Assembly: GCA_964392285.1 (NCBI GenBank)
Contig: CAYMOW010000002.1
Coordinates: 1 to 64,000, forward strand
Source: an uncultured Candidatus Saccharibacteria bacterium
GTDB taxonomy: Bacteria; Patescibacteriota; Minisyncoccia; Phycocordibacterales; WO2-35-19
Length of the DNA: 64,000 nt
Direction of reading: 5' to 3'
Position 1 is the first letter of the stretch, and the number at the start of each line of letters is the position of its first letter. The notes below the pieces were generated by a model, which made no database searches, had not been told where the DNA came from, and was given only the letters and a program-made list of their open reading frames with translations. Positions 10,262 to 57,968 of this stretch are shown here, piece after piece. The position numbers and the translations under genes were made by a program.

Positions 10262-11749
10262 ATGCCAAATCAAAATTCTCAAAACCGAATAAGGCGGGCG
10301 CCGGTCGTGGCTGTGCTTGGCCATATTGATCATGGCAAATCTACTCTGCTTGATTACATCAGGAAATCCAACACTGTGGAAAAAGAGGTTGGCGGTATTA
10401 CCCAACACTTGAGCGCTTACGAAGCCGAAGTTGGCCCCGATAAACGCAAGATCACCTTCCTCGATACGCCCGGCCACGAGGCTTTTTGTGCCATAAGAGA
10501 ACGCGGTAGCCGTGTCGCCGACATCGCCATTTTGGTCGTCTCGGCTGAAGATGGAGTCAAACCGCAAACAATCGAAGCGATCAAATGTATCTGCGCCGAG
10601 GCGACACCTTTTATCGTCGCCATCAACAAAATCGACAAACCCAACGCCAACATCGAAAAAACCAAACAGGACCTAGCCGGACAAGAAGTCTTTGTTGAAG
10701 GTTGGGGCGGAACCGTGCCAGTCGTGAATATTTCAGCCAAAAAAGGTGACGGCGTAGCCGAACTACTCGAGATGATTTTGCTTCAAGCCGATCTACTCGA
10801 GCTCGAAAGCGACCCTCTTGCACCAGCCGAAGGTTTTGTGATCGAGAGTGCCAAAGATACCAAGAACGGTGTTTCGGCGACCTTGATCATCAAAAATGGT
10901 CAGCTCAAAAAAGGTACCTATGTGGCCAGTCAAGGCGGTTTTGTGGCTGTGCGCCAAATCGAAACTTTTGACGGCCAAAAAATCGATCGAGCCGAAGCTT
11001 CGATGCCGATCAGACTGACCGGCTGGAACGGCCTGCCGATTGTCGGTGAAGATTTTGCAAGCTTCGACTCCAAATCAGAAGCCGAAGAATACGTCAGCCA
11101 ATTAGCGAGAAAAACCGAAACTCAAAAAATCTTTGGCCAAAACGAGGCCGGCTGTTCTTGCCTACCAATCATCATCAAAGCTGATGCCCAAGGCTCGCTC
11201 GAAGCAATCGAAAACGAATTTAACAAAATCAATATCTCTGGCATCAATCTAAAAATAATTGCCGATGGTATCGGCCCAATCACCGAAGGTGATGTCAAAA
11301 CCGCGGTCTCGAGCAAAGCGGTTATGATCGGCTTCAATGTTCCGACCGACAAAAATGCAAACGCTCTCGGTTTGCGCGACGCAGTCGAGATCAGAAACTT
11401 TTCGATTATCTACGAACTAACCGATTGGCTCAAAGAAAAACTCCAAGAACTCGCACCCAAAGAAAAACAAGAAGTCATAACCGCCAAAGTTAAGATTCTC
11501 AAAGTCTTCAGCCAGAGCAAAGACAAACAAGTCATTGGTTGCCGAGCCGAGGATGGCGAGGTCAAGTCTGGACAGGTGGCGCGCATCTTTCGACGTGAAG
11601 CCCAGATCGGCGAAGGCCGTATCCGCGAACTCCAATCTCAAAAACAAAAAGTTGGTTCGATCGAACAAGGCCAAGAATTTGGAATGCTGTTCGAATCCAA
11701 AACCGAAGTTGCTCCGGGCGATTATCTCGAGATTGTCAGCTTATCCTAA
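10262..11749 (+). CDS. infB: translation initiation factor IF-2 (short form, lacks the N-terminal domains)
   Basis: G-domain VVAVLGHIDHGKSTLLD, DTPGHEAF, NKID, followed by the IF-2 beta-barrel domains. Confidence 0.9.
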   Translation: MPNQNSQNRIRRAPVVAVLGHIDHGKSTLLDYIRKSNTVEKEVGGITQHLSAYEAEVGPDKRKITFLDTPGHEAFCAIRERGSRVADIAILVVSAEDGVKPQTIEAIKCICAEATPFIVAINKIDKPNANIEKTKQDLAGQEVFVEGWGGTVPVVNISAKKGDGVAELLEMILLQADLLELESDPLAPAEGFVIESAKDTKNGVSATLIIKNGQLKKGTYVASQGGFVAVRQIETFDGQKIDRAEASMPIRLTGWNGLPIVGEDFASFDSKSEAEEYVSQLARKTETQKIFGQNEAGCSCLPIIIKADAQGSLEAIENEFNKINISGINLKIIADGIGPITEGDVKTAVSSKAVMIGFNVPTDKNANALGLRDAVEIRNFSIIYELTDWLKEKLQELAPKEKQEVITAKVKILKVFSQSKDKQVIGCRAEDGEVKSGQVARIFRREAQIGEGRIRELQSQKQKVGSIEQGQEFGMLFESKTEVAPGDYLEIVSLS

Positions 11750-11804
11750 TCGCCTATTTTGTGTTAAATTAATTCTGGGCCCAAAAAAGTAGATGCATAA
11801 TCTG

Positions 11805-11876
11805 GGCCTAGTCGCCAAGTGGTAAGGCAAGGGTCTGCAAAACCCTTATACGGCGGTTCGATTCCGCCCTAGGCCT
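11805..11876 (+). tRNA. tRNA-Cys (GCA)
   Basis: Acceptor GGCCTAG/CTAGGCC, 3-bp D-stem, anticodon loop CTGCAAA, T-arm GGCGG-TTCGATT-CCGCC. Confidence 0.8.
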
Positions 11877-11942
11877 CAAAACATAGCCAGCTGATACACT
11901 AATTTTATAAAAGAGAATCGCCAAACCGTTTTGAAACTTCTG

Positions 11943-12024
11943 TGCCTGGGGCGGGCATCGAACCCACATCTCTTTCGAGACACGATTTTAAGTCGTGCGC
12001 GTATACCAATTCCGCCACCCAGGC
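11943..12024 (-). tRNA. tRNA-Leu (TAA), long variable arm
   Basis: Reverse complement gives GCCTGGGTGGCGGAATTGGTA...CACGA-CTTAAAA-TCGTG..GGGTTCGATGCCC..CCCAGGC. Confidence 0.8.
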
Positions 12025-12086
12025 TTTGTGTTTATATTATATGCTATTTGAGAAATTACAAATTTTGCTGTATATTTTCTTCTATA

Positions 12087-12159
12087 CCGCCCATAGCTCA
12101 GCTGGTAGAGCAGACGCCTCTTAAGCGTAAGGTCCTAGGTTCGAACCCTAGTGGGCGGA
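12087..12159 (+). tRNA. tRNA-Lys (CTT)
   Basis: Acceptor CCGCCCA/TGGGCGG, D-arm GCTC-AGCTGGTA-GAGC, anticodon loop CTCTTAA, T-arm CTAGG-TTCGAAC-CCTAG. There is one mismatch at the top of the anticodon stem. Confidence 0.7.
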
Positions 12160-12203
12160 CACGAGTAAAAAATATGAACTGCTTCATATTTTTTACTCGT
12201 GTC
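12158..12203. terminator. 20-bp perfect hairpin after tRNA-Lys
   Basis: GACACGAGTAAAAAATATGAA-CTGC-TTCATATTTTTTACTCGTGTC. Confidence 0.6.
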
Positions 12204-12493
12204 CGAGCCGGAGCGATGTTTTTGTTTGAGCTTTGCTCAAGGCAAAAACCGCGAGGCGGGATCGCAGAAAATTTGAGTCAGCAAATTTATCTGTGATGAC
12301 AATGTCCGAGGCGGAGCCATGTTTTGATAGCAATCAAAACAGGCGAGCCGGGTGAGAAGCGAATACTTGGAGCTTCGCAAGACTCATTGAGCTCGAGTCC
12401 TCGAGAGCCAATGAGTGGACAGATCCTGTAAGGATTGCGGAAATTTTCGAGCGACGGCGAGAAAATTATCCGTGACGACAAGATAGAATCGAT

Positions 12494-12575
12494 GCTGGGG
12501 TGGCGTAATTGGTAGCCGCGCTAGTCTTAGGAACTAGTGGAGTAATCCGTGGGAGTTCAAGTCTCCCCCCCAGCA
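12494..12575 (+). tRNA. tRNA-Leu (TAG), long variable arm
   Basis: Acceptor GCTGGGG/CCCCAGC, anticodon stem CTAGT/ACTAG with loop CTTAGGA, variable arm GGAGTAATCCGT, T-arm GGGAG-TTCAAGT-CTCCC. Confidence 0.8.
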
Positions 12576-12706
12576 CAGATTGAGCACGGCGAAAGCTGTG
12601 CTGGGGGTGCAGCTTTATGCAATAAAGCGTAGCACTGACTTGAAAGCCGGAGCGCGACGGCGCGAGGCGGGGTCGACCAAATTTTCAGCAGAAAATTATG
12701 GGTGAC

Positions 12707-12726
12707 CAAGTCTCCCCCCCAGCACA
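12707..12726 (+). repeat. direct repeat of the tRNA-Leu(TAG) 3' end (CAAGTCTCCCCCCCAGCACA)
   Basis: 20-nt exact copy of 12558..12577, about 130 nt downstream of the tRNA. The 12205..12700 region also carries three copies of a GCCGGAGCG...GCGAGGCGGG module and AAAATTAT[CG][CG]GTGA[CT]GAC modules. Confidence 0.6.
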
Positions 12727-12768
12727 AATGCAAAACTCGCCTTTTGGGCGAGTTTTGCATTTTGTGAT

Positions 12769-13094
12769 CCTCATTCTCATAAGCCGAATTCTGTTTCTTT
12801 GCAATAATTTATCTAGGTCCTAGATTGCTCTAGGACTCGAGCGGCACTCCCCTCGATTGCTTTCGGGGCACGGCCTTGCACAGAAGTAAGAGTTTAGTCG
12901 TTGCACCCGTATGTTGCCATACGATTACTCCACAAGGGAGCTCCTTGCCTTTCGGCTTGGACGTCACTGTTCGCATCTCGCGCCTCACGGCGGACGGGCA
13001 TTACCCGCTACTTGGCTCTCCAATCGAAATTGGAGCTGTGTTCGGACTTTCCTCTCCGACTAAAACGTCGGAGCTATTGCTCGGAATGAGAATC
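12769..13094 (-). ncRNA. rnpB: RNase P RNA (rnpB) candidate
   Basis: The minus-strand RNA contains the universal CR-I-like GAGAGGAAAGUCCGAAC near its 5' end and a CR-V-like AACAGAAUUCGGCUUAU near its 3' end. The P4 partners are GUCCGAA and UUCGGCU. The terminal P1 pairing is UCUCAUUC...GAGAAUGAG. The whole is about 326 nt and GC-rich. Confidence 0.6.
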
Positions 13095-13205
13095 TAGACA
13101 TATTCTATCACATATTTTCAACTTCGCAAATTTTGCTTGCATTTTTTCCCTTTTAGTGATATAATTGAAGACGGTAGTTATTTTGACAATTTAGGGAGGT
13201 AAGAA

Positions 13206-14252
13206 ATGGCTAGCGCACCACCAATTGAACTTCAAGAAGGGGCAGTGCCCAGACCAAGATATCAACTCTTCACTGATTGCCCCCAAGATTGGTTCTTGGT
13301 GGTCGTACGTGGGGGGGACATTCACAAGATCGTCCATTCTGTAAAAGGGTGGCGAGTAAACGAAGAGTTTGAGTTCGTAACAGAAGATGCTACGAACAAA
13401 AACTTGATCACCCCTCTTCGAGCCCTGACAGGCTACGAATTTGTGGGTGTCCCGGGTTTCCAGGGGCTAAAAGTAATAAAGTTCGCCTGGAATAAATACT
13501 GGCGAACAGATGAAAACAGTCCAATCTACGGGGTGGTCGCTCACGACCCACAACTCGTTTATGTGTTCCCGTTCGAATCTCAATACCCTCTTACGTACGA
13601 AGGAATTGATACGGTGGCACAAAACCGAATAAAACCGGAAGAGTTGTCGCTCGTAGCGGTAACTTTTGTGGTCACGGTCCGAGTCAGGATGCTACGACCA
13701 CGGATCGCACTCGCTACAAACATCGATTGGTTCGGGGGGGTGCTTATTCCAAAACTCCAAGGAGTCCTGAAGGATTTCGCTGGAGAGAAAAGTTACGACG
13801 AACTGATTCGGGGGGCAAGGAAGACGGTTACGCAAGAACTCGAAGAGTTTGTGATGGGGACCAACCAGACCCCTAGTAAATTTCGGGAGAAAATTCTTCA
13901 AACGGCAGGAGTCGACATCATCGACTTTAGCCTAGTAGACATCAAACCCAACAAGGCCTTCGAAGACGCCCAAAATGAATTGGCTTCCGAACAACGAAAG
14001 GCCTCCGGGGTCATCGTCACAGCCGAAGCGGCCAAACAAGCCAAGATCCTGGAGGGAGAAGGACTGGAAGCATACGAAGCCGCGATAGGTAGGGGTAAGG
14101 CAACCGCGATAAAAGCCATCCGTGAAGCTGCGGGTTCCGACTCAGAGACCTACTTCAAGTGGGACGGGATGAAAAGTTCGAAACTGGGTACCTACGCGGA
14201 AGGTACCAGCAAGGCTAGCATCCTGGTCGGCCCTGACGGCAGACCTATCTAG
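13206..14252 (+). CDS. SPFH/band-7 (stomatin-prohibitin-flotillin-HflK/C-like) domain protein, no TM segment
   Basis: Strong RBS AGGGAGG. The C-terminal half matches the band-7 pattern (GVDIIDFSLVDIKPNKAFEDAQNELASEQRKASGVIVTAEAAKQAKILEGEGLEAYEAAIGRGKAT); the N-terminal roughly 150 aa are unique. Confidence 0.55.
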   Translation: MASAPPIELQEGAVPRPRYQLFTDCPQDWFLVVVRGGDIHKIVHSVKGWRVNEEFEFVTEDATNKNLITPLRALTGYEFVGVPGFQGLKVIKFAWNKYWRTDENSPIYGVVAHDPQLVYVFPFESQYPLTYEGIDTVAQNRIKPEELSLVAVTFVVTVRVRMLRPRIALATNIDWFGGVLIPKLQGVLKDFAGEKSYDELIRGARKTVTQELEEFVMGTNQTPSKFREKILQTAGVDIIDFSLVDIKPNKAFEDAQNELASEQRKASGVIVTAEAAKQAKILEGEGLEAYEAAIGRGKATAIKAIREAAGSDSETYFKWDGMKSSKLGTYAEGTSKASILVGPDGRPI

Positions 14253-14378
14253 CCAAACTTCTGACTACAACCCCTTTTGGAGAACTTACCAGTTCCAACC
14301 AAAAGGGGTTGCTTTTTTTATAGAATATGATATAATTGCCCACAGAATTGTAATCCGAAAATTGAAGGGAGGAAGAAA

Positions 14379-15509
14379 ATGCTTTGGATGATATTGGTAT
14401 GGACAGTGGCCATAATCCTAGCGATTGGGGCCAAGATTTTACTGCCACCCGTTATCGGGTGGCGCAACAAACTCATCACGACTAGGCAGGCGTGGCAAAT
14501 CCCAATAGTGGTGGCCGGTTGTGTATCCGTAATACGGGTGATCGCTCACCTGATCGGGTCACAATGGCAAACAATCTGGTGGATAGTAGGTTTAGTAGTC
14601 GTTGGATATCCGATTTATCGCATCATACGACGCGAAAAGGTTTCGAACCTCGCCCAAAGGTATAAGACAGACCTTACAATAGTGGGCGTCTCGACCTTTA
14701 CAGTGGTCGCCGCCAACTGCCTGCTATACTTTGTTACCAGTGCCGATCCAAGAATTTGGGCTTGGTACTATGGCAATGCGTATTTCTTCTGGGCATGGAA
14801 CTTTGGCTGGATCGTAGTGGCTTTCCTCCATTCCAAAAGAGACGACAAGAACATCGTGATTCCGATCGCGGTTACGGGCCGTAATTGGATTATGGTGATT
14901 TTGATTGCAGGACTCCTGATAAATTATGTGTTTTATCCTTCTTTACCGAGATGGGTCAACACATTGACTACCAGCGGTCTGGGTAATCTCGGCACCAACT
15001 TCGGTCAGCCTGACCTGCTCCGGTTAACGCCGGAGGAGCACAAGGCGACACACACAGCGTTGATGAAAACTCCGTTCGCGGAGCGGAAGGTGCTCTGGGC
15101 CCTCTACGAGTGCAACCCAGAAAACAAGGCCTTTCGTCCCAAGGATGGGGACCTTCCTGCCCTCAAGACCTACCAGTCAAAAGGCGCACAAGCCTTCGGC
15201 GATGCCTGTGTCGAGAAATTGACGCGGGCACGGCAAACGTTTGTCCTCGCCGTGGTGGAGGCCACGAGCGAGAAGTGGAGCGATCCAGTAATTTTACCGG
15301 AAGCGCTCTTGTACGAGATTGTGTACTCCTCCGAAGAGAGGAGACACAGGACCACAGTCCTGGGGCCCGATGATGGCCAGCAAATGGAGCTGGCCGAAGG
15401 ATACACGGTCCCGCCCTTCAAAACAGTCGGGGCCAAGTTCAAGTCCAAGGCCGGGACGGTGCGTGTCACCGTCGAATACCGGCCAACGAAAGGAGCGAGC
15501 TCGCAATGA
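14379..15509 (+). CDS. polytopic membrane protein (about 6 TM) with a C-terminal soluble domain, hypothetical
   Basis: Strong RBS GAAGGGAGG. Trp-rich hydrophobic N-terminal 200 aa followed by a charged, roughly 170-aa tail. Same strand as the SPFH gene, 126 nt downstream of it. Confidence 0.6.
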   Translation: MLWMILVWTVAIILAIGAKILLPPVIGWRNKLITTRQAWQIPIVVAGCVSVIRVIAHLIGSQWQTIWWIVGLVVVGYPIYRIIRREKVSNLAQRYKTDLTIVGVSTFTVVAANCLLYFVTSADPRIWAWYYGNAYFFWAWNFGWIVVAFLHSKRDDKNIVIPIAVTGRNWIMVILIAGLLINYVFYPSLPRWVNTLTTSGLGNLGTNFGQPDLLRLTPEEHKATHTALMKTPFAERKVLWALYECNPENKAFRPKDGDLPALKTYQSKGAQAFGDACVEKLTRARQTFVLAVVEATSEKWSDPVILPEALLYEIVYSSEERRHRTTVLGPDDGQQMELAEGYTVPPFKTVGAKFKSKAGTVRVTVEYRPTKGASSQ

Positions 15510-15553: not shown

Positions 15554-15823
15554 TTACGACTCGCCGAAGAATGATGGCACAGGAATACCGAAGGTGTTTA
15601 GCACCAAACGCAAGATGCCGTAGACGCTAAACATTACAAACATCCCAATGATACCGTAGAACACATTCATCTTCTTCTTTTCCAAATCCGAACCATCGGC
15701 TCCAGCTATGAGCCCGATAATGCCGTAAAAGAAGAATATAGTCGCCACCACAAAACCCAGAACGATAATCGGATTGATGATGTAGGTGGCTATTTTGCCG
15801 AGCAGGTTCGTAACAGCTGGCAT
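15554..15823 (-). CDS. small two-TM membrane protein, paralog 1 of a seven-member family (VirB2/TrbC-pilin-like?)
   Basis: Helix-charged loop-helix architecture: FFFYGIIGLIAGADGSDLEKKKMNVFYGIIGMFVMFSVYGIL. Confidence 0.65.
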   Translation of the reverse strand: MPAVTNLLGKIATYIINPIIVLGFVVATIFFFYGIIGLIAGADGSDLEKKKMNVFYGIIGMFVMFSVYGILRLVLNTFGIPVPSFFGES

Positions 15824-15826
15824 GTC

Positions 15827-16177
15827 TTATCTTGGAACAAGTTGACGAACATTAAAACCAGGACCCGTACCTGTGTCAATTCCCAAAGCATCACCGAGGA
15901 ATGCTACCAAACCCCAGACAGCAGCCATGACAAAGATGGCCACAACGCCCCAGATCATGGTCTTCTTGGCCTGATCTGCTTTGTGTTCGCCACCAAAGAT
16001 ATACATAGCCAAGCCCCAGAAGAAGAAGAGCATTGCCAAGGCAAAGATGATTGGGATCAGGATATTTATGATATCACCAATCGATTCTGCCAAGCTTTTG
16101 ACATTATTAAGCTCCTGACCAAAAGCCAAAACTGGCGAAGCCAGAGCAACTATTCCGAATGAAATTAATTTTTTCAT
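15827..16177 (-). CDS. small secreted two-TM protein, paralog 2 (signal peptide + pilin-like core)
   Basis: MKKLISFGIVALASPVLAFGQ signal peptide, then core FFWGLAMYIFGGEHKADQAKKTMIWGVVAIFVMAAVWGLVAF. Confidence 0.7.
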   Translation of the reverse strand: MKKLISFGIVALASPVLAFGQELNNVKSLAESIGDIINILIPIIFALAMLFFFWGLAMYIFGGEHKADQAKKTMIWGVVAIFVMAAVWGLVAFLGDALGIDTGTGPGFNVRQLVPR

Positions 16178-16286
16178 TATTTTGTTTTTAATAATTTATT
16201 TAATAACCAAACGACCTAATAATTGAATACATTATAACACTTTCATCCATCTTTTCCAAACTAATTATGTTAATTATGTTTAGATT

Positions 16287-16634
16287 CTAGTAATTTATTC
16301 TTGGCATATTAATGGTATTGCGTTCATCAATACCCAATTCTTGCCTAAAGAACCTCACAAGACCCCAAACAGAAGATATCACAAAGAGCGCAACGACACC
16401 CCAAACCATCACATTTTTCCCCTCTGCTTTGCCATCACCCTCAGATTTGATGTACTTGGCCACACCCCAGAAGAAATAAAGCAAAGCCAAAGTGAAAGCT
16501 ATCGGAATCAAATAAGCACCTACTATGTTATCAACACTGCTTATTATTCTTTCTGTCCCTTGTAAAGCCTGCGCACCTACCACCGTCGGTAAAACTAACA
16601 AAGCCGGCACAATAGAATATTTGAAAAATTTCAT
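16287..16634 (-). CDS. small secreted two-TM protein, paralog 3
   Basis: Signal peptide MKFFKYSIVPALLVLPTVVGAQA, core YFFWGVAKYIKSEGDGKAEGKNVMVWGVVALFVISSVWGLVRF. Confidence 0.7.
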   Translation of the reverse strand: MKFFKYSIVPALLVLPTVVGAQALQGTERIISSVDNIVGAYLIPIAFTLALLYFFWGVAKYIKSEGDGKAEGKNVMVWGVVALFVISSVWGLVRFFRQELGIDERNTINMPRINY

Positions 16635-16649
16635 ATAATTATAAATTTA

Positions 16650-16952
16650 TTAATTATTTTTAACTTCTACTTTGATTGGAATGTTGGAAAGGCCGAGTTC
16701 GCTTCGGATAAAGGCCACAATACCCCAGACCGAAAAGGCCACAAAGAGTCCGATGATACCCGAAACCATAATCCGCCTACCCTCTTCGGCCGCCTTGTCG
16801 CTACTTGCGCCCTCCTTGATATATTTTGCCACACCCCAAAAGAAATACAACAAGCAAAGTGAAAAAGCCAGTGGTATGAGTATGCTGTTCACTATGCCGA
16901 ATGCTGAATCTATGAGGTCGCCAAGTTTCATCCCGTTAGTGAAAAATGGCAT
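16650..16952 (-). CDS. small two-TM protein, paralog 4
   Basis: Core YFFWGVAKYIKEGASSDKAAEEGRRIMVSGIIGLFVAFSVWGIVAFI; about 85% identity to paralog 3 in the core. Confidence 0.7.
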   Translation of the reverse strand: MPFFTNGMKLGDLIDSAFGIVNSILIPLAFSLCLLYFFWGVAKYIKEGASSDKAAEEGRRIMVSGIIGLFVAFSVWGIVAFIRSELGLSNIPIKVEVKNN

Positions 16953-17087
16953 TGCTTTTTTGAAAAGCCACCATTTTATTTTTTAGTTTGTAATTCATAT
17001 AAATATCGACTTAATATATTATAACTCGATTGAAAAAGCTTTTCTATGCCATTTTCTACTACGGGATTCATATTACAATTTTCAATC

Positions 17088-17369
17088 TTAAATCTTAAAA
17101 TTGATTTGCGGTATGCCGACCGGACTGTTCCAACCAAACTCTGAGCGCAAAAAGACCATAATGCCCCAGATAGTCGTCAGCACAAAGAGACCGATTATAC
17201 CCCAGATGAGCAGGTTTTTGCTCTCTTTGAGCTCCTTCTCATTGCCCGCAGCTCGAATAAACCGCCCCACTCCAAGCACAAAGACCAAAAAGGCCACCAC
17301 GCCCAAAAACGGAATAATCTTCATTCCGAGGTCGGTGAACATCTTTACTACTTCGCCAAGGTTTTTCAT
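17088..17369 (-). CDS. small two-TM protein, paralog 5
   Basis: Core VFVLGVGRFIRAAGNEKELKESKNLLIWGIIGLFVLTTIWGIMVF. Confidence 0.65.
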   Translation of the reverse strand: MKNLGEVVKMFTDLGMKIIPFLGVVAFLVFVLGVGRFIRAAGNEKELKESKNLLIWGIIGLFVLTTIWGIMVFLRSEFGWNSPVGIPQINFKI

Positions 17370-17381
17370 AATTTGTCTTTT

Positions 17382-17795
17382 TTATGAGCGCAATTGGTCT
17401 ATCGTGCCACCTATCGCTTCAGATATAACCCAAGCACCGAGGAGTATAGCTGCCCCGATCACTCCATAAAGCAAGGTGTCGTGGGCTGTTTTGATTTTAC
17501 CCGTATCGCCTCTTGCTGTGACATAAAGAAAGCCCGCATACATTATAACCAAAACAGCAATTACTCCGCCTATAGGTATCAGTATTTCGTTTATAACCGT
17601 CTTTATAAAGTCCATCAGATTATCGCCACCCTTGAATGGATTGTCTATTTTTATATTGAATTTGACTGGACTTGGAGCCGGAGTAACCTGTGGACTTGGG
17701 GCTGGAGTAATTTGTGCCCACAAAACCACTGGAACAAAGGCAGAAAATATAACCACAACAACAAAAAGATTTTTGAATAAATTTTTGATCTTCAT
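17382..17795 (-). CDS. small secreted two-TM protein, paralog 6 (Pro/Thr-rich linker)
   Basis: Signal/TM MKIKNLFKNLFVVVVIFSAFVPVVLWA, the repeat PAPSPQVTPAPSP, and core YAGFLYVTARGDTGKIKTAHDTLLYGVIGAAILLGAWVISEAIGG. Confidence 0.65.
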   Translation of the reverse strand: MKIKNLFKNLFVVVVIFSAFVPVVLWAQITPAPSPQVTPAPSPVKFNIKIDNPFKGGDNLMDFIKTVINEILIPIGGVIAVLVIMYAGFLYVTARGDTGKIKTAHDTLLYGVIGAAILLGAWVISEAIGGTIDQLRS

Positions 17796-18199
17796 TTGTT
17801 TATTATATTAGTATAATCGCCTTTGAAAAGTGCACCAACGATGGCTTCGGTTACGAGCCAGGCCGAAAGTATGATGGCGAGTCCGATGCCAACTTTTTTC
17901 ATCATTGCAATCGATTCGCTTCTTTTGCCTGAATTGTCCGGATTGAGCATCATATTCAAGCCAGCCCAAGCAAAGACTCCAGCCGAAACCGGCACGGCAT
18001 ACTTGATCAGCTCTCTGATAATATTGTTTATAAGGGTTACAAAATCATCAAAACCACATTCCTGGTTCAGCCCGCCCGAATTGTTGCGCTGGCCACATTC
18101 GGGGATAATGCCACCTCTATTGGTCTGTGCCAGAGCCTGGCTTGGCACAAGCACCAAGAGCATAAGACAGACGAATAGTATTTTGGTTGAAGTTTTCAT
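17792..18199 (-). CDS. small secreted two-TM protein, paralog 7
   Basis: Signal peptide MKTSTKILFVCLMLLVLVPSQALA, core WAGLNMMLNPDNSGKRSESIAMMKKVGIGLAIILSAWLVTEAIVG; its stop overlaps the start of paralog 6 by 4 nt. Confidence 0.65.
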   Translation of the reverse strand: MKTSTKILFVCLMLLVLVPSQALAQTNRGGIIPECGQRNNSGGLNQECGFDDFVTLINNIIRELIKYAVPVSAGVFAWAGLNMMLNPDNSGKRSESIAMMKKVGIGLAIILSAWLVTEAIVGALFKGDYTNIINK

Positions 18200-23194: not shown

Positions 23195-23242
23195 GGCTGA
23201 AATATAGCACAAATCGACCCAAAATGGAAATCCGGCACGAAA

Positions 23243-25105
23243 TTATTTAGTTAAATATTCTATGTTGTATTTTATAAGATCATAAGCTTCTATTGTTATT
23301 GCTTTCTTTTTCAGGAGCAACTGCAATTCAGTCATAAAAAGCTTCACCAAAATTTTATTAACCTTTTTGTCAAAAACCTCTACTCTCTTTAATTTTACTG
23401 AACCATCAGGAAGTTTTTCTTTGACTACCTCTATTTTCTTATTGAATTTGATAGCACCATTAACTTGTTTTATCAGACTATCACGCACCTTTTTATCTTT
23501 AATCCAACCAAGATCGAAAGATTTGTTTATATCTCTTATCAGAGTTTCAAGGGTTATTTCTTCAACATCACTCTCCGGCAACGTGATTTTTGGTTCGCCA
23601 ATTTCTGCCGTCGGTTCACTTGCAATATAATCAACCACTACTTCATATTCAACCTTTTCTCCTTCAACAATATCTTTTTTCACAGTTTCGATCTTGTCTG
23701 TATCAGAATCAGATAACGCTACCGCCATATGATATTTACCATCAGAAGTTCCGACTAGTTCCACCTTGTAATCTCCCGCCAACCCATTAGGAATAATTAT
23801 CATTTTCAACCCCTCAGGATTACTTTCTCCTGTATAAATAGCTCCAGGTATACTATTGGTGTTTTTGGTTATAACTCTGCCTTGCGGATCTGTAATTTTG
23901 ACTTCAACCGGTGAAGCAAACCAAAAAGAAGTCAGATTATCTGGTTCTGGCGGTGGCACATAAGCAACGGATGGTTGTGGTAAAGAAAGAGTGGAGAAGA
24001 TATCGGAAATGGCTTTGGTCGGCAAATCACCGTGTTTCGAATCTACCTCAATGTGTTTTAGGAATTCACTGGGATTTAATTGGGCGTAAGCAGTCGGTAA
24101 AATTTTTGCAAACAATCTTTGCCAAAAATTCTGCATCAGAACTGGTGGAAATATGTCAATCCCACCAAAAGACGCACTGAGAGCCAGTACTCTATTATCA
24201 CCTTCGGTCGTATCTCTGATTGGGGTAATTGGCTCTGGTACTCCATCTACCCAAAGTTTAGTTTCCGAAGCACTCCTTGGGACAATCGGGATACTTTCTA
24301 TTGTGTCTTGACCTTTACCTGCAACTGTCAGAATGCCTCCGACATTTTGTAACTGCATTGTTGAACTATTAAGATTTAGGTTCTCTAGAAAATAATTCCT
24401 GCCTTGTTGAAGATTCTCATATGAGATCAATTCCCCATTCTCATCTTTAAGAAAATTATATAGCGGTAAAAGTTCCCCTATTGATGGAATAAAGCTGTGG
24501 ATGGTGTCGTAACTATCAGCAGTCTGAGCGGTCGCGGTGGTCATATACCAAAGATACAACCCCACCCCAGCCCGTGTTAGTTTATCCCAATTCTCTGGCA
24601 CAACACCACCTTCCCATAATACATAAACTTCAGAGCTACCCCAATTTGGAGTACCTAATAAAATAAGCTTGTTCACATCGTTCCTGTAATTATGACTTTG
24701 GATGTAACGCCTAGTCACCAAACCACCCATAGAGTGAGCGATTATATTCACTTTGCCAGTCGGAGAATTAGCAAGAGCCTTATCTATTGTTGGTATAAGA
24801 TAATCGGTAGCAGAATTTATATTGCTCTGCCTCCAATCATAAAAAGCAATGAAAAGTGTTTTGTCTTTTTCATAACCCGCTTTCTCTAGGGCATCGATCA
24901 TATTATCCCAGGTTTTATCAGATGGAAAGAAATCCCAACTCCCGCTACCATTCCTCTGTAGCATCACTTCCCAATTCCAAGACCCCATAATCCCGGGCAC
25001 TATGACTATTGGTTCTTTTGCTTCTTGAGCAAAAACTTGTTGACAAGGGTTAAATACAAAACTTGTCAAAAACAATAAAATTACAACCTTATGAAATATA
25101 TTCAT
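23243..25105 (-). CDS. secreted alpha/beta-hydrolase lipase/esterase with a C-terminal extension
   Basis: Signal peptide, IVIVPGIMGSW, and the GxSxG nucleophile elbow IIAHSMGGLV. The C-terminal 250 aa are Lys/Glu-rich. The region is AT-rich. Confidence 0.65.
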   Translation of the reverse strand: MNIFHKVVILLFLTSFVFNPCQQVFAQEAKEPIVIVPGIMGSWNWEVMLQRNGSGSWDFFPSDKTWDNMIDALEKAGYEKDKTLFIAFYDWRQSNINSATDYLIPTIDKALANSPTGKVNIIAHSMGGLVTRRYIQSHNYRNDVNKLILLGTPNWGSSEVYVLWEGGVVPENWDKLTRAGVGLYLWYMTTATAQTADSYDTIHSFIPSIGELLPLYNFLKDENGELISYENLQQGRNYFLENLNLNSSTMQLQNVGGILTVAGKGQDTIESIPIVPRSASETKLWVDGVPEPITPIRDTTEGDNRVLALSASFGGIDIFPPVLMQNFWQRLFAKILPTAYAQLNPSEFLKHIEVDSKHGDLPTKAISDIFSTLSLPQPSVAYVPPPEPDNLTSFWFASPVEVKITDPQGRVITKNTNSIPGAIYTGESNPEGLKMIIIPNGLAGDYKVELVGTSDGKYHMAVALSDSDTDKIETVKKDIVEGEKVEYEVVVDYIASEPTAEIGEPKITLPESDVEEITLETLIRDINKSFDLGWIKDKKVRDSLIKQVNGAIKFNKKIEVVKEKLPDGSVKLKRVEVFDKKVNKILVKLFMTELQLLLKKKAITIEAYDLIKYNIEYLTK

Positions 25106-25120
25106 TGTAAATTTTAATAA

Positions 25121-25603
25121 TTATAATATTTTTCCAGACGCATATCCCAAACCAAGTACCATAACGAAAAAGAAAATTGCCACAAAAACAGCCAGCAAAA
25201 TAAGTGCAACAACCAAAGAAATTACGAAATTCTTTAAGGTAAATTTACCGTGCTTTAGAACTATGTAGCAATAAAAAACCAACACTGACCAACCTAAAAC
25301 TGATATCGGTATCAAATCAAACACCTTGTTTTCTATAACACTTTGCAGATTATAACCATTTGAAAAATAATTATGAGTCAGTTCTGTTGCAGACCAAAAT
25401 CCAAACCAAGCACAAACCACAAAAGTCACAAGAGATGTTAGATAGGCTAGGATTACCTGCCACCAAGAGATTGATAATTTTCTTTTCCATTTTCTAAATC
25501 CTAAGTATGCAAAAGGTAAAAAAATAAAAAATGCTGATAGCAAGAAAAATACCCACTCGATAACGAGTATCAATGTAGGCCCCGCCCTAAAATAGGTTTC
25601 CAT
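25121..25603 (-). CDS. hypothetical membrane protein (about 4 TM)
   Basis: Hydrophobic ORF, AT-rich, no recognisable domain. Confidence 0.45.
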   Translation of the reverse strand: METYFRAGPTLILVIEWVFFLLSAFFIFLPFAYLGFRKWKRKLSISWWQVILAYLTSLVTFVVCAWFGFWSATELTHNYFSNGYNLQSVIENKVFDLIPISVLGWSVLVFYCYIVLKHGKFTLKNFVISLVVALILLAVFVAIFFFVMVLGLGYASGKIL

Positions 25604-25666
25604 TTGAGGTTATACACTTATGGTAGCACAACGACTTGATTCGTTTTACAAGCTTATCCACATAAT

Positions 25667-26761
25667 TTATTCAGCACAGATAACATAATGCAGATATTCT
25701 GTCGTCTTGCTTGCTGTATAATTCCTGTTTTCTGATTTATCAGCCCTAAAACGACTATGCTCTTTTGTAAAACATCCATATTTACCCCGGAGACTCATTA
25801 TTTCTCTTATATCATCGGGGGTCATCAAACCTTCATTGTTATAACTCAAAAATATATATTTGACTTTGGCCTTCAATATCAAATCTTTAAACGATTTTCT
25901 GACCTGGTTTTTTGAACAATACAAAGATTTCTGATCAGTATAATCTCGTAGACCAGTCTTCCCATATATTTTAGGATTATCATACCTAGCAATTGTCTCT
26001 AAAATATGATAATTCGTTGCATATTGACGATGATTATATGGTGGGTCAAGATATAAAACATCTCCGTTAATTTTTTCGACGATTTTATTTATATCCATAT
26101 TGAAAATTTCGTGATCTTGTTCATTAACAATCAATTCTGCTGGTTTCAAGATCAGACTACTTTGAGCTGTCTTTTTTAGATTCTTCAGGAAAGCTCCGTA
26201 GACGGATGCTGTGTTCGCATATTTATCAATCGATTCGACTAAACTAGCGATCAAAAAATAATATTCATCATCAGAGATTAAATCTTTCTCTTTCCAATTT
26301 TCAATTTTTTGACGAATAGCGTCGCACCGCATTCCATTTTCATTTGAAAAATATTGTCTTGATTCTTCTTTGTCTTTGGTTTCTCCGAGACAATAATTTT
26401 TATAGATAAAGCCTTTTACACCCTCCAAATTTGATAGATATTCACAAACAAAATCTTTACGTTTTTCTGTGTCAATATTTTTTAGACCAGCAATTTCTTT
26501 TGTTAGTTTTATAAATTTTAATTCCTTATGATTCCCAACATAGTGCCTATTCAATACATAACTGTAATATTGAATATCGTTAGAAATTATTTTGTAACCT
26601 CTTTTCTTGAAATAACTACCGACAACTCCAGTTCCAGCAAATAAGTCACAAAAAACCTTGCAGTTTTTATCAACTACTTTATTAATTGATTCTTCCAAGA
26701 ATTCTAACAAAGATAGTTTACTGCCGATATAATTCATAAATTCATGATAACATACCCGCAA
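25667..26761 (-). CDS. Dam-family (alpha-class, D12) N6-adenine DNA methyltransferase
   Basis: N-terminal NYIGSKLSLLEFL and FCDLFAGTGVVG (motif I); C-terminal LYLDPPYN (motif IV DPPY). Confidence 0.8.
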   Translation of the reverse strand: MRVCYHEFMNYIGSKLSLLEFLEESINKVVDKNCKVFCDLFAGTGVVGSYFKKRGYKIISNDIQYYSYVLNRHYVGNHKELKFIKLTKEIAGLKNIDTEKRKDFVCEYLSNLEGVKGFIYKNYCLGETKDKEESRQYFSNENGMRCDAIRQKIENWKEKDLISDDEYYFLIASLVESIDKYANTASVYGAFLKNLKKTAQSSLILKPAELIVNEQDHEIFNMDINKIVEKINGDVLYLDPPYNHRQYATNYHILETIARYDNPKIYGKTGLRDYTDQKSLYCSKNQVRKSFKDLILKAKVKYIFLSYNNEGLMTPDDIREIMSLRGKYGCFTKEHSRFRADKSENRNYTASKTTEYLHYVICAE

Positions 26762-26799
26762 TAAAATCTATACGAAAACATAGGCTTTTGTGGTAGTAT

Positions 26800-27549
26800 T
26801 TGCCTATGTTAAAAAACGACTTAAATAATGAACGAATTGGCGTCTCTGCTGAAATTTCAATTGCAGATATTTTTGAAATTCCTATCAGTGACAACTATCG
26901 AAATCGCGGAGCACAAGATATTACAAACACCATCAAACCTATCATTGCCGATATCTTCAACTTAAATAATATTCCTCCACCAATCAAACATGTTGCGGAA
27001 AATCAAAATACTATAGATTTTATACTTGAAGGCAATAAAACTTTATCCGTAAAAACAAATAAACAAAAATTGGGCAAAGCTGCACCACAAAAAATTGGCC
27101 AGGCATCATCAAACACTTGGTTTGCGATTTTAGCAGAACGATTAGGTATAGCATATATACCGACAGCTTATCCTGAAAAAGTCAAACTTTTTAAAATAAT
27201 TGCACTAACAAGGATCGAGGAACTACTTTTTATTTACTGGGAATACATGTTCGATTGCGATTTTTTGATCCATATTTTCAATATCGTTGATTCTAATAAC
27301 AACCTTACTCGTGATCCGAAATACATAGTAACTAAGAAAACCAGTAGCCCTATTTGGGATCCTGCAAAAATTACATTTACAAGGCCAACTGTATCCGAGT
27401 GGAATGAGAGCAATACTGTAAAATACGAATACGATGGTGTGGCAATAGGTGAATTTCAAGTCCACAACAATAGGGACAATTTTAAATTTCGTTTCAATAT
27501 GGCCGGTATTTTCAAGTTAATGACAGAAGGTCGTCTCAGTTTTTCTTAA
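26800..27549 (+). CDS. putative type II restriction endonuclease (hypothetical, sits between two methyltransferases)
   Basis: 249-aa ORF with no recognisable family. It is divergent from the Dam-like MTase and convergent with the second MTase; AT-rich. Confidence 0.4.
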   Translation: MPMLKNDLNNERIGVSAEISIADIFEIPISDNYRNRGAQDITNTIKPIIADIFNLNNIPPPIKHVAENQNTIDFILEGNKTLSVKTNKQKLGKAAPQKIGQASSNTWFAILAERLGIAYIPTAYPEKVKLFKIIALTRIEELLFIYWEYMFDCDFLIHIFNIVDSNNNLTRDPKYIVTKKTSSPIWDPAKITFTRPTVSEWNESNTVKYEYDGVAIGEFQVHNNRDNFKFRFNMAGIFKLMTEGRLSFS

Positions 27550-28321
27550 AAACCATTATGTATTCGTGTTTGAATATATAATAATCACTTGATAACGCGC
27601 GGTATCTCCAAATTCCTTCTTTATTCTGTTTGCCACGATTACCAACCATATTCTTTATTATAATACTTTTCAGAATTAGACCTAGTTTTTGAGCCTCATT
27701 CATACAATAAAAACCCAATGGTACCCACTTCCCCATTTTATATGCATCACCAATAACAATCGCCAAATATCTACCATTTTCCAAAACATCTATTGTATTC
27801 TTTAAAACTTCAGCAAATTTTCCTAAAAACTCTTTCAAGGATTTTGCGTTTGATAAATCATCTTTTAAGTCACTAAACTTTATAATATCCGCATATGGTG
27901 GGTGCAATATGGCCATTTGCACATTTTTCTTTTTGTGTTTTTCTAAAATATCTTTTACTTTTTCAAAAGTTTGGATTTTTGTGCTGTCACCTATAATTAG
28001 CTCAGAAAAATTACCTTTCGCATCAATATTCTCACTGACATAATCAACGAGTTTTTTCTGTATATCGATCCCAATAAAATTCCTGTTTAGACTCTCTGCC
28101 TCATAAGCAGTGGTTCCACTTCCTAAAAATGGGTCCAGGATTGTTTCGTTCTTTTTTGTGTACCTAGATATTAACTGGTGAGGAATTTGTGGAACAAAAT
28201 TCCCATGGTAAAAACCGCTATGTTTTCCTGACTTGTCTCTTTCTGAAATAATCCAGAGACTATCCGTCCAAATTTCTGATTCTTTCCACTTACTTAAATC
28301 AAGATCATTAAAAATTGGCAT
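27536..28321 (-). CDS. DNA methyltransferase, N4/N6 amino-MTase (PF01555-like)
   Basis: HGNFVPQIPHQLISRY (motif X-like), ILDPFLGSGTT (motif I), ILHPPYADI (motif IV-like). The table ORF extends to 28441, but those 40 extra codons read through tRNA-Glu; ATG at 28321 (MPIFNDL) is used instead. Confidence 0.7.
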   Translation of the reverse strand: MPIFNDLDLSKWKESEIWTDSLWIISERDKSGKHSGFYHGNFVPQIPHQLISRYTKKNETILDPFLGSGTTAYEAESLNRNFIGIDIQKKLVDYVSENIDAKGNFSELIIGDSTKIQTFEKVKDILEKHKKKNVQMAILHPPYADIIKFSDLKDDLSNAKSLKEFLGKFAEVLKNTIDVLENGRYLAIVIGDAYKMGKWVPLGFYCMNEAQKLGLILKSIIIKNMVGNRGKQNKEGIWRYRALSSDYYIFKHEYIMVFKKN

Positions 28322-28332
28322 CTTAATATTTG

Positions 28333-28406
28333 TGACGCTACCGGGATTTGAACCCGGGTACCAAGCTTGAAAAGCTTGTGTCCTAACCAGACTAGACGAT
28401 AGCGCC
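28333..28406 (-). tRNA. tRNA-Glu (TTC)
   Basis: Reverse complement GGCGCTATCGTCTAGTCTGGTTAGGACACAAGC-TTTTCAA-GCTTGGTACCCGGGTTCAAATCCCGGTAGCGTCA. Confidence 0.8.
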
Positions 28407-29785: not shown

Positions 29786-32700
29786 TTAATTTTGATCAGC
29801 TTCCTCGATCACAAGCTCGCCTTCCGGAAGATCGGTTGGTTTCTTGCTCACGCCAGGCATAGCAACAACCGGTGAAGCTTGGTCTTTGTTGGCCAGACCA
29901 GCAGCCAAGAGAGCTGCGGCCACAGCACTAGCTTGCTTGCGCTTGCAGATCGCCGAGAAAATCAAGAACATTATAGCGAGCAAGATAAGGAAGAGTAGAC
30001 CGAAGACGATAGCCGTATCGCGAGGCGAACTGAAGAGAGTGATGGCGACATTTCGCAAAATAGATGTATCCGATTCGTCGCGATCCTCTTTGGCCAAATC
30101 AACGACCACACCAGCAACAGAACCTAGAGTGCTTGTTGCCTCGGCCGAACCAGAGACTAGAGTCGTAGTAGAAAATGTTCCACTTCTACCCACAGAACCA
30201 CCAAAACTTGATGTGTCTATTTCAACTCCACGAGATCTGAGATTTTCAAGAAGCGCTCGGAAAGCATTGATCTCATTTTGTTCTTCAGAAGTCACAGGGA
30301 AAAGAGAGCGACAGAATATTTCGTTGATCTTCTTTTTGGTCAAGATATAAACGAAGCCAGTCGGTGCATCATGACCCCAAGGTTCAAGAATATCGGCGAA
30401 GTATTTATTTTGGAATCTCGAAACAGCATCAAAGGTTGCTTGATCAAAATTCGAGTTCAAGGACAAATTTTCTTGTTCAAAGACATTTAGGAATGTTTTT
30501 AGTTTGAGCATTTCCGTTGGGTCATTGTTCCAACCCATCTTGAGGTGATCGCGCAAGTAGAAGCAGGTAGTTGCTCCAAGGATTTCACCTTGAGGACGTC
30601 GGCGACTACCGCCAAGCGATGAGCCACCACCTCCACCACCGCCGCCACCACCGCCACCAGTGTTCACTGTAATGGTTGTAGTTGCGCTAGCGCTGCCCCC
30701 AGCACCAGTACAAGAAATACTGTACTCGGTTGTAGAACCCGGAGTTACAGAAGCTGTGCCTGAGGTTGAGGTTGCGCTCGTCCAAGCTGCGCTACAAGAA
30801 GTTGCGTTGGTAGAACTCCAAGATAGAGTCGAGGAATTGCCTTTATCGATCGTTGAAGGATTGCCAGTCAAAGTCACAGTCGGCTTTGGATCAGGATTGG
30901 AGATCGGGTTTACAATTATTGTGGTTGTCGAAGTTGCATTACCACCTGATCCGGTACAGGTGATTGAATAAGTTGTAGTTGTAGCTGGAGAAAGTATTGC
31001 ACTACCAGAAGTTGAGGTGGCACTAGTCCAAGCCGCACTACAAGAATTTGTATTATTTGAAGTCCAAGAAAGAGTTGTTGTAGCCCCAATGGTGATAGTC
31101 GAAGGATTGCCAGTCAAATTTACTGAAGGTAGTAGTGGTCCACCGCCTTGTGGCTTGACGATAACTGTCCTTGTGGTTGAAGCACTAAGTCCACCCGAGT
31201 CGGTCACGGTGTAAGTAAGAGTATAAGTACCAGTTGTCGAAGCGTTGACACTGCCGGTTTTTACAATAACAGAAGTCAAATTGCCATCTTCAAGATCGTT
31301 TGCAGTTGCGCCCGGGTCAGTAAAGACATTGCCCACAATTATTTCAATTGGGTTTGCACCAACCAAAGTGATAGTTGGTGGGGTGTTGACCGGAGCGGTA
31401 GTACAAGGCAATTCAATCGAATCGATGGTAAAGTCAATACCATTTCTCGATGTTGCATCGATAAGCAAACTTATTGCGCCGACATTGCTCATATTGGCAC
31501 CACTACCAAGGAATGGCGTAAAGCTACTGAATGGCACACTGCCATTAAGGACAGTGTTACTAGCACCATAAAGCTCAAGGACAGCTTGAGAAGCATTATT
31601 GGCATCAGTATAGACTCTAAAGGTCAAAGTAACCTTTTTGTTGTCAACAAAATCTGCACTGTAAGTAAAGTTTATTCTATTTCTTTGACCGTTCAAGGAC
31701 AAATCTTTACCATTCAGACCTGTATAATTTATAACATTGGCATTAGTATCCTTGCCATCCCAAACCAGAAGAACAGTGCTTTTGGTATTAGCTCCGTTGG
31801 AAAGAGCAAAGGCACCAGAAGTCGTATCTGTAAAATCAGAGAAACTAGCTGAACCTATTCTGGTAATAGTATGAAATACATCGAGTTCGCCACCAAGACC
31901 CGAAGTGTCTACATAGTGCATCAATCTTGACGAACTAGGTGTCTCATAGGTTATGGCTTGATAGGCATTTGAGAAATGATCGACAACTAAAGGACATTGA
32001 CCACCGATCGGAGGCGGCACAACCGGATTACAACTATTGACCGTAACCTTTACAACCAAATCATTAAAATCATTGTCAGATTCAGATGAAGGTAAGTCTT
32101 CAAAACCAATCAAGAATACATTGTTGTCGATTTCATAAACCACAGCGTGATCCGTAGCGTCTTGGTTGTTAGCTATCTTGGTCGAATAGTATCTGCCACT
32201 ACCAGTGTTGATTACAAAAGCAATCTCTGAGTTGGCAGGCAGATCAAAATTTGCCGTTTGACCAACCGAAAGAGTTGGAGCAGATGAGTGGTCGGTATTG
32301 ACACCATTCTTAAAGACCGGAACAAAGGAACCAGATGAGGTGCTAAAACCGAAAGCCGAGTCTAGTACGGCATCGCGATGAATATATTCCACTGTAACCG
32401 AAGTCGTGGCTTGAGTATTCCAAATCTGAAACTGCTTCTGATCATTGATAACATTCAAACCATAACCTTTGGTGGTAATAACGTCTTGCAAAGACAATGG
32501 TCCAGTGCCTGGAACGACTGGTTCGACAGAACCATCACCCAAAGTACTCGGCAGAGCACAGGTGTGAGTAATAGTTTTTGGCACGACATTTACAACTCTA
32601 TTCACAGTAACCGAAGAACCCTTGGAATCAGCAACAGTGTAAGAGATAGTATAGGAGCCGGTGCTTGAAGCATTGACCGTGCCCGACTTTTGGATCTGAG

Positions 32701-52467: not shown

Positions 52468-52515
52468 GTTATTTTATAACTTACATAAATTTGATAGTAT
52501 TGTGATGATTTGAGT

Positions 52516-53346: not shown

Positions 53347-53410
53347 CTCTTACATTATAGACTAATATTATACGATTAAATTTTGCTAGTTGTTTGAGAG
53401 AGTATACAGA

Positions 53411-56330: not shown

Positions 56331-56407
56331 ATTTCTTATATTAGGATTAAATTTTGCTGGCCATCTGGTACGAAGTCGGAACAGTTCTATGTATTTAATT
56401 CAAGTTT

Positions 56408-57956: not shown

Positions 57957-57968
57957 ATTATATCACTT

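Follow-up and report, generated by a model that had tools for sequence, protein, structure and literature searches.

A candidate cell-envelope gene pair, encoding an SPFH protein without an anchor and a polytopic membrane partner, beside a VirB2-like pilin array of a Candidatus Saccharibacteria bacterium

Two adjacent genes were analyzed in a stretch of 64,000 nt from an uncultured Candidatus Saccharibacteria bacterium (assembly GCA_964392285.1, contig CAYMOW010000002.1, positions 1 to 64,000; the whole stretch is referred to below as the window). Gene 1 encodes an SPFH protein without the usual anchor, and gene 2 encodes a membrane partner that, judging from profile comparisons, probably descends from a membrane-anchored lysozyme-like family. 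In related loci, an array of VirB2-like pilin genes is the constant neighbor of the pair. Both the descent of the partner and the constancy of this neighbor were absent from a preliminary description of the pair made from the sequence alone. The explanation that we tentatively favor is that the two genes form a lineage-specific cell-envelope module, in which a membrane scaffold and a wall-binding partner would serve the VirB2-like pilin apparatus. The genes and the parts of the second product are as follows.

13206-14252, plus strand: gene 1, SPFH/Band-7 protein, 348 aa (open reading frame (ORF) confirmed)
14379-15509, plus strand: gene 2, membrane partner, 376 aa (ORF confirmed)
14379-14936, plus strand: membrane part of the gene 2 product, residues 1-186, with approximately six predicted transmembrane (TM) helices (hydropathy, Lys/Arg counts in loops)
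14937-15509, plus strand: predicted extracytoplasmic tail of the gene 2 product, residues 187-376 (family alignments)

The SPFH assignment of the gene 1 product, already proposed in the preliminary description, was supported by both profile and structure searches. Residues 150-275 (nt 13653-14030) match the Pfam family Band_7 (PF01145) at 34.3 bits, the cut-off being 23.6. The cut-off is also passed by orthologues from the related metagenomic loci L006 (44.1 bits) and L008 (25.0 bits); the loci inspected in this work are L001-L012 and JGI contigs, including 3300071358. In the AlphaFold2 (AF2) model, built with six homologues, the overall pLDDT is 56; residues ~120-280 are modeled well (pLDDT ~60-89), and a long helix occupies residues 250-306. 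The N-terminal stretch, located outside the Pfam match, is poorly modeled (pLDDT <50), and the C-terminus contains a conserved strand, ILVGxDGxP. A Foldseek comparison of the model with the PDB returned HflK/C, stomatin, prohibitin, flotillin, and the major vault protein (MVP), all with probability 1.0. The SPFH cage complexes (HflK/C-FtsH, stomatin, prohibitin, flotillin) are thus the best structural matches, sharing with gene 1 the SPFH core, the long coiled-coil helix, and the C-terminal strand. The search against BFVD yielded only generic viral Band-7/SPFH proteins.

As the preliminary description had stated, the protein lacks an N-terminal anchor. No TM segment was found in the gene 1 product, in which the maximum 19-residue Kyte-Doolittle mean is 1.36. 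The N-terminal 150 residues had been described as unique; this holds only in the sense that neither Pfam nor AlphaFold resolves them, since they are conserved across all homologues. Homologues of gene 1 are P0002-P0006 and those of L004-L008. Moreover, this part aligns, from the motif P-x-P-x-Y onward, with distant orthologues that start in a TM helix. According to hhalign, the probabilities of the alignments with the distant TM-anchored orthologues are 97% for L012, 85% for L011, 80% for L009, and 45-83% for L010. The N-terminal TM anchor retained in L009-L012 is followed by a stretch rich in Lys and Arg, so that by the positive-inside rule the anchor should have its N-terminus outside and its C-terminus inside, which places the SPFH domain in the cytoplasm. 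The clade of the window has lost the N-terminal TM helix that the distant orthologues keep. The N-terminal 150 residues of gene 1 most likely correspond to an insertion-bearing first half of the SPFH domain.

The gene 2 product had been described as a Trp-rich protein with six TM segments and a soluble tail of roughly 170 aa; its features agree with this, and the tail is somewhat longer (~190 aa). It contains 16 Trp residues in 376 aa, 14 of them in the first 195 aa. A Trp-rich core, W.WYYGN..FFWAWNFGW, is present in all partner homologues and is their most conserved part (IWAWYYGN..FFWAWNFGW). The loops rich in Lys and Arg are RNKLITTRQ, RREKVSNLAQRYK, and SKRDDKN; by the positive-inside rule, both the N-terminus and the tail are predicted to be outside the cell. 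The tail consists of a helical segment that includes the last ~30 residues of a lysozyme-like domain, followed by a conserved C-terminal beta-rich domain (VEATSEKWSDPVILP...VTVEYRP). No match to gene 2 was found in Pfam, NCBIfam, PHROGs, or PADLOC, and its AF2 model (pLDDT 43) is too poor for use.

A full HMMER scan (E up to 1e-3) identified 74 representatives of the partner family among 1.84 billion. The consensus of the family tail is CESGG..QF...G..Q(I/F)...H...EGN..Y...G..PW...CW.PKL, followed by VEAP..WS..v.iP. A profile of 35 tail-domain sequences compared with the PDB retrieved 92 sequences with E values of up to 10, and almost all of these are lysozymes. The best match was 1gd6 (E 0.005); EtgA, a transglycosylase associated with a type III secretion system, and RpfB were also matched. 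The Pfam matches of individual family members are solely to lysozyme-like families, namely, Transglycosylas (PF06737), SLT_3 (PF18896), SLT, and Lys, all below the gathering scores. From these profiles we conclude that the family probably combines a polytopic membrane anchor, a lysozyme-like domain, and a beta-rich C-terminal domain. The family is small, undescribed, and probably related to lysozyme-like domains.

The hidden Markov model of the lysozyme-like domain, with the conserved ES...GxxQ...W, matches 53/73 family members; the window protein is among the 20/73 without it. Both the ES and the GxxQ motifs are absent from the window partner, and only the last ~30 residues of the domain align with its tail (hhalign probability 51%, E 1.6e-4). 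Since the catalytic part is lost, the window partner is probably not an enzyme; with the beta domain kept, it probably binds or organizes the wall rather than cutting it. The sequence YECNPEN in the window tail was considered as a mutated form of the CESGG catalytic motif and rejected, because the local profile alignment did not support it. As the alignment is limited to the C-terminal ~30 residues, loss of the catalytic region is claimed here rather than a point-mutated site.

Close homologues of the two proteins are very rare: 5 matches for gene 1 and 4 for gene 2 were found among 5.8 billion clusters. Scans of GTDB species-representative genomes with the SPFH alignment and with the alignment of the lysozyme-like domain revealed no relatives. 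The pair is co-conserved in 13 related metagenomic loci besides the window, that is, in every contig inspected; as SPFH is also supported by profiles, neither of the two grounds for refutation named in the preliminary description applies. The arrangement is constant: the SPFH or SPFH-like gene is followed by the partner on the same strand and then by pilin genes on the opposite strand (tail-to-tail). The neighboring VirB2-like (T4SS_pilin) arrays contain 7-8 genes and were seen in L001, L003, L005, L006, L008, L010, L011, and the JGI 3300071358 contig. In the window, the array is as follows.

15554-18199, minus strand: convergent array of 7 small VirB2-like pilin genes (Pfam T4SS_pilin/TrbC for 3/7 tested)

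In agreement with the preliminary description, which placed the pair between a tRNA/repeat hotspot and a pilin-like array, the genes are bounded in the window by a tRNA/RNase P RNA cluster (11805-13092) and by the array above. Beyond the array lie genes for a solute-binding protein (SBP) and GyrA, to which the long contigs also run on downstream of the pilins. In L001, L006, and L008, where enough upstream DNA was seen, IF-2/RbfA are encoded upstream of the pair. In the JGI 3300071358 contig, the upstream flank differs and the trio of SPFH-like, partner, and pilin genes is intact. The same contig (genes 776-2515 and 4033-5490) encodes a second Band_7 protein of 579 aa on the opposite strand, upstream of the pair.

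Each gene of the pair has its own set of expression signals, listed below; the promoters are proposed from reading the sequence.

13137-13165, plus strand: putative gene 1 promoter (TTGCAT at 13137-13142, 17-nt spacer, extended -10 element TGaTATAAT at 13157-13165)
13166-13205, plus strand: gene 1 5' leader, ~35-40 nt, with the Shine-Dalgarno (SD) sequence GGGAGG
14268-14319, plus strand: intrinsic terminator between the genes (hairpin 14268-14311, T-run 14313-14319; folding and terminator scan)
14309-14336, plus strand: putative gene 2 promoter (TTGCTT at 14309-14314, 16-nt spacer, extended -10 element TGaTATAAT at 14328-14336)
14337-14378, plus strand: gene 2 5' leader, ~40 nt, with the SD sequence GGGAGG

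The GGGAGG sequence is located 6 nt before the ATG of both gene 1 (13194-13199) and gene 2 (14367-14372). In a scan of 54 plausible window genes, in which the longest match to the SD core was scored 3-20 nt upstream of the start, a match of at least 5 nt was found in 2/54, solely genes 1 and 2; the near-perfect GGAGG sites are therefore, as noted earlier, unlike those of most window genes. The SD is kept in the orthologous loci L001-L010: gene 1 orthologues are preceded by GGAGG or AGGAG in L001-L003, L005, and L008-L010, and the partner gene is preceded by an SD in L002-L009. In the database, the partner (P0007, 373 aa) begins at the second ATG, 14388; the start at 14379 is favored because its SD spacing is 6 nt, compared with 15 nt. 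The remaining window genes are A/T-rich before the start and often have TATAAT within ~10 nt of the start codon. This position of TATAAT, together with the near absence of SD sequences in the window, suggests that the mRNAs of this organism are as a rule leaderless or have short leaders.

The intergenic hairpin has a minimum free energy of -26.2 kcal/mol (z = -7.0), and 0/200 shuffled sequences fold equally well. The terminator is kept, with compensatory changes in the stem, in L001-L003, L007, and L008; its 3' arm and T-run overlap the TTGCTT box of the gene 2 promoter. The layout CCTTGCATTTTTT...TGnTATAAT is also found upstream of the gene 1 orthologues in L001, L002, L005, and L009. In a comparison of six loci, the best-conserved DNA of the locus is GGGGTTGCTTTTTTATA..ATATGcTATAAT at the gene 2 promoter, and the stretch ACAACCCC...GGGGTTGCTTTTTTATA..ATATGcTATAAT is better conserved than the proteins. 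The layout of hairpin, promoter, leader, and SD recurs across L001-L010. A strict sigma-70 scan flagged neither proposed promoter, because the -35 boxes match at 3/6 only; what supports the proposal is the extended -10 motif, together with conservation among the loci. No Rfam riboswitch or leader RNA was detected in the two 5' leaders. Since each gene has a promoter, leader, and SD of its own, with a terminator between them, the two genes are separate, strongly signaled transcription units. Such a layout would permit high and separately set expression, possibly with much more scaffold than partner.

The preliminary description had also suggested comparing the composition of the pair with that of housekeeping genes. 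The GC contents of the two genes (0.51 and 0.53) and their GC contents at third codon positions (GC3, 0.54 and 0.64) are inside the housekeeping-gene range; by how well their synonymous codon usage fits the housekeeping set, by contrast, the two genes are 47th and 52nd among the 54. The pair exceeds its surroundings in GC content in each of the related loci. In L006, which is AT-rich, the GC3 of the pair is 0.50-0.53, versus 0.22-0.29 for IF-2, SBP, and GyrA, and the pilin array is at the background level.

Amino acid identities were compared among the window, L005, L006, L008, and L011. The identity is 80-85% for GyrA, 56-68% for SBP, 20-57% for the SPFH protein, and ~20-28% for the partner, for which one global alignment, the window versus L011, effectively failed at 2%. 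The window and L008 share 83% identity in GyrA and 36% in the SPFH protein, and the SPFH identity of the window with L005 is 52%. L005 and L011, which differ in the presence of the anchor, share 85.5% in GyrA and 25% in the SPFH protein. The nearest pairs by GyrA are not the nearest by SPFH. The pair thus evolves fast and incongruently with its flanks. Recombination that replaces the cassette at a fixed slot may be the cause, as may diversifying selection; for the GC3 only, expression-linked codon bias is a further possibility. Because all relatives have the pair in one and the same chromosomal slot, the window genome does not carry it as a recent island. The earlier suggestion of horizontal acquisition therefore does not hold as a recent event; the composition that is distinct everywhere (most clearly in L006) and the incongruent divergence agree with it in part.

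Beyond the domain identities, predicted topology, expression signals, co-conservation, and rapid incongruent evolution documented above, we infer a physical interaction of the two proteins, oligomerization, and a link to pilus function. The membrane-organizing role suggested earlier is the natural reading. The gene 1 product would be a cytoplasmic SPFH scaffold built of the SPFH core, the long coiled-coil helix, and the C-terminal strand. By analogy with the known behavior of the family and the structures of HflK/C, stomatin, prohibitin, and flotillin, it may oligomerize into a ring or cage at the cytoplasmic side of the membrane. Lacking an anchor, it could be tethered there via the basic cytoplasmic loops of the partner, as may be supposed from YdjI with YdjG/H. 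The partner would expose its tail outside the membrane, a wall-active domain in most family members and a wall-binding one in the window genome. The scaffold would keep the partner within a patch of membrane at which the wall could be opened or held open for a pilin or type IV secretion system (T4SS)-like surface apparatus.

VirB2 arrays are known and common in Patescibacteria, contain 2-11 genes, and are highly variable; they were reported to be essential for epibiotic growth in one cultivated species, the one tested, and are mostly without a recognizable VirB1 or scaffold component (PMC12102498). The 7-gene T4SS_pilin/TrbC array of the window is of the kind described there, whereas that paper never mentions SPFH, and neither an SPFH protein nor this membrane partner is named in it as a neighbor of the arrays. 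There is a precedent for a secretion system scaffolded by flotillin (PMC5718613). In addition, the anchor-less SPFH protein YdjI of Bacillus subtilis was shown experimentally to depend on the neighboring membrane proteins YdjG/H (PMC8581546).

Comparison with known systems shows partial similarity to several of them. In SPFH cage complexes, as proposed for this pair, an SPFH protein is paired with a membrane protein thought to be confined. Unlike them, gene 1 has no N-terminal TM helix or hairpin and carries lineage-specific insertions in its N-terminal half. In contrast to HflK/C-FtsH, the locus has one SPFH gene instead of the paralogous HflK and HflC, the partner is no protease, and no FtsH was found among the neighbors scanned. 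The SPFH domain of HflK/C is periplasmic, whereas that of gene 1 is predicted to be cytoplasmic. Stomatin-NfeD operons share the two-gene arrangement of an SPFH protein and a membrane protein; however, the partner contains no NfeD (PF01957) or ClpP-like domain, and the gene order and the intergenic terminator differ. An NfeD-type or HflK/C-type pair is therefore not supported. The YdjI system (pspA-ydjGHI operon, PMC8581546) resembles the locus in its anchor-less SPFH protein dependent on neighboring integral membrane proteins and in its link to wall integrity. It differs in that the window has no nearby PspA gene, no zinc-finger tail, and no Band_7_1-type match, and the partner is unrelated to YdjG/H. 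Gene 1 is thus a member of the SPFH superfamily outside the HflK/C, stomatin-NfeD, and YdjI subtypes. FliL, a weak structural match to gene 1 (rank 40), is also SPFH-like and assembles into rings around the flagellar stator, a machine embedded in the membrane; however, FliL spans the membrane once and has a periplasmic domain, its sequence is unrelated, and flagellar genes are absent here.

As for the partner, its family can be compared with the muralytic enzymes of secretion systems (VirB1, EtgA, PrgK/TraG) and with Rpf-type lysozyme-like domains: its ES...GxxQ(I/F)...W domain is probably lysozyme-like, EtgA and RpfB are among its best PDB matches, and its genes adjoin VirB2-like pilin genes. 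Unlike in these enzymes, the domain is joined to a beta domain and to a membrane part that is polytopic and rich in Trp, and the window copy lacks the catalytic part. In contrast to the T4SS wall hydrolase of the VirB1 type, the partner adjoins VirB2-like pilin genes only, with no virB4 adjacent. Modules of an SPFH protein and a partner are known, and so are muralytic enzymes associated with a T4SS; their combination, the topology, the fixed place by pilin arrays, and the cassette-like evolution are undescribed in the literature searched. Searches for papers on SPFH proteins with Patescibacteria and on PF18896 found nothing relevant.

Several observations weigh against a module serving the pilin apparatus. 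The whole region (SBP and GyrA on one side, IF-2/RbfA on the other) is syntenic among close relatives whose GyrA is 80-85% identical, so the adjacency to pilins is weak evidence of a functional link. Among the window ORFs scanned, no VirB4, VirB6, or VirD4 genes or domains were found. A strong terminator separates gene 1 from gene 2, and the soluble parts of their products are predicted on opposite sides of the membrane. The lysozyme-like assignment is composed of many concordant matches, each below threshold, with no strong one among them; the window partner itself has no catalytic residues, and both AF2 models are weak.

Other explanations were also weighed. A general membrane-homeostasis or stress module, in which an SPFH scaffold acts with its client or anchor as in stomatin/NfeD, HflK/C-FtsH, and PspA-YdjGHI, would reduce the pilin adjacency to conserved gene order in a narrow clade; we consider it possible, if rather unlikely. 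The SPFH fold with its coiled coil and the YdjI-type precedent (PMC8581546) agree with such a module, as do the synteny that extends to SBP and GyrA and the organization of the two genes as separate transcription units. However, the partner contains no NfeD, protease, or PspA-type domain, divergence to 20-50% identity would be unexpected while GyrA keeps 80-85%, and the pair remains with the pilins where the upstream flank differs. Somewhat less plausible still, and unlikely in our estimate, is a surface-interaction or host-range cassette, the partner tail of which acts on or recognizes the host wall and which, with its own promoters and SD sequences, is subject to diversifying selection and swapped by recombination within conserved flanks. 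The very fast and incongruent divergence, the GC and GC3, which exceed the genome level in all loci (L006 being the most striking case), and the codon-usage ranks of 47 and 52 of 54 are in line with this explanation. So are the self-contained and conserved expression signals, the modular tail with its lysozyme-like domain gained or lost, and the position beside variable pilin arrays (PMC12102498). Against this, the cytoplasmic SPFH protein diverges equally fast, and neither breakpoints of recombination nor genes of mobile elements were identified at the borders; the raised GC3 could be expression-linked codon bias, and the host wall may be out of reach for a protein with its anchor in the cytoplasmic membrane.

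A similarly doubtful proposition unites the cassette with the pilin apparatus. The pair may be a self-contained hypervariable cassette, exchanged among related ultra-small bacteria at a fixed slot by the VirB2-like array and equipped with its own promoters, leaders, SD sequences, and terminator. It would supply the missing wall-breaching or wall-holding component together with a scaffold, and allelic variation (the lysozyme-like domain, the SPFH anchor) would tune the hosts engaged. It is improbable, in our opinion, that the pair is a cell-wall growth or division factor, that is, an Rpf-like membrane-anchored muralytic family for turnover of the cell's own peptidoglycan regulated by the SPFH protein. 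The profile similarity to RpfB, c-type lysozymes, and EtgA and the influence of flotillins on peptidoglycan synthesis (PMC7360373) could be cited for it, but an essential wall enzyme would hardly be expected to lack its catalytic part in 20/73 members, the window copy among them, and the divergence is too fast for a housekeeping role. The least supported rival, and a very improbable one, is the horizontally acquired anti-phage defense or abortive-infection module, or prophage remnant; a defense module had been proposed in the preliminary description. The atypical codon usage and SD use, the hypervariability, the adjacent tRNA cluster with its duplicated tRNA-Leu 3' end, and the occurrence of SPFH proteins in phages would suit it. 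However, no PADLOC-DB 2.0 families were found at E up to 1 for either protein, the sole PHROGs match has an E of 0.21, and the 2.9 million viral contigs of IMG/VR contain no relatives of the pair, while the BFVD matches are generic SPFH proteins. There is also no integrase, nuclease, NTPase, or toxin-like partner, and the chromosomal slot is fixed in all relatives.

The region upstream of the pair in the window contains the following features.

10262-11749: IF-2 gene (infB)
11805-12576: four tRNA genes (Cys, Leu-taa on the minus strand, Lys, Leu-tag)
12764-13092, minus strand: bacterial class A RNase P RNA (Rfam RF00010, 111.7 bits against a gathering score of 100)

The RNase P RNA gene is divergent to the SPFH gene, and the ORFs listed within 12764-13092 are spurious. 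A repeat of the tRNA-Leu 3' end (12550-12580) occurs at 12699-12729 (31 nt, 87%) and resembles an att-type scar; the tRNA cluster region 11805-12760 contains further repeats (12250-12277 and 12661-12688), and perfect hairpins were found after tRNA-Lys (12156-12205) and at 12726-12762. In the window, there is no rbfA after infB, and the tRNA cluster begins 55 nt past infB (11749-11805); rbfA follows infB in L001 (3338-3673) and L008 (3183-3509). What lies between infB/rbfA and the SPFH gene varies from locus to locus, with an HNH endonuclease in L001 and several small SD-led ORFs in L008, and this segment is a variable hotspot. A Y1 (IS200/IS605-type) transposase gene lies between SBP and GyrA in L008 only (13558-14193).

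The rest of the window is ordinary chromosome, with genes for ClpB, GroEL, a class I aminoacyl-tRNA synthetase, RNase J, and a P-type ATPase; an EPSP-synthase-family (MurA/AroA-type) protein is also encoded, and the window contains no rRNA gene. The pilin arrays, the short IF-2, and the gene content point to a bacterium of the CPR/Patescibacteria type, probably an ultra-small one. A protein of 1252 aa (29786-33544, minus strand) with bacterial surface Ig-like, DUF4114, and DUF642 domains is probably a large surface protein. The stretches 23200-28400, 52500-54200, and 56400-58000 have a low GC content (GC 0.31-0.38, GC3 0.23-0.32, versus about 0.47 elsewhere), and the first of them encodes an LCAT/lipase-like alpha/beta hydrolase and a D12 N6-adenine DNA methyltransferase. 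It is these stretches, and not the SPFH pair, that have the appearance of foreign islands in the window.

Under the favored explanation, a module serving the pilin apparatus, the constant neighbors of the VirB2-like arrays, namely, the SPFH protein and the partner of a lysozyme-like family, provide two testable candidates for organizing a membrane and wall patch for a surface apparatus in minimal cells. The locus is a natural example of an SPFH protein that has lost its anchor yet kept its membrane partner, and of a muralytic domain that seems to have decayed to a probable binding module. It is also an example of SD-led, leadered genes inside a genome that otherwise barely uses SD sequences.

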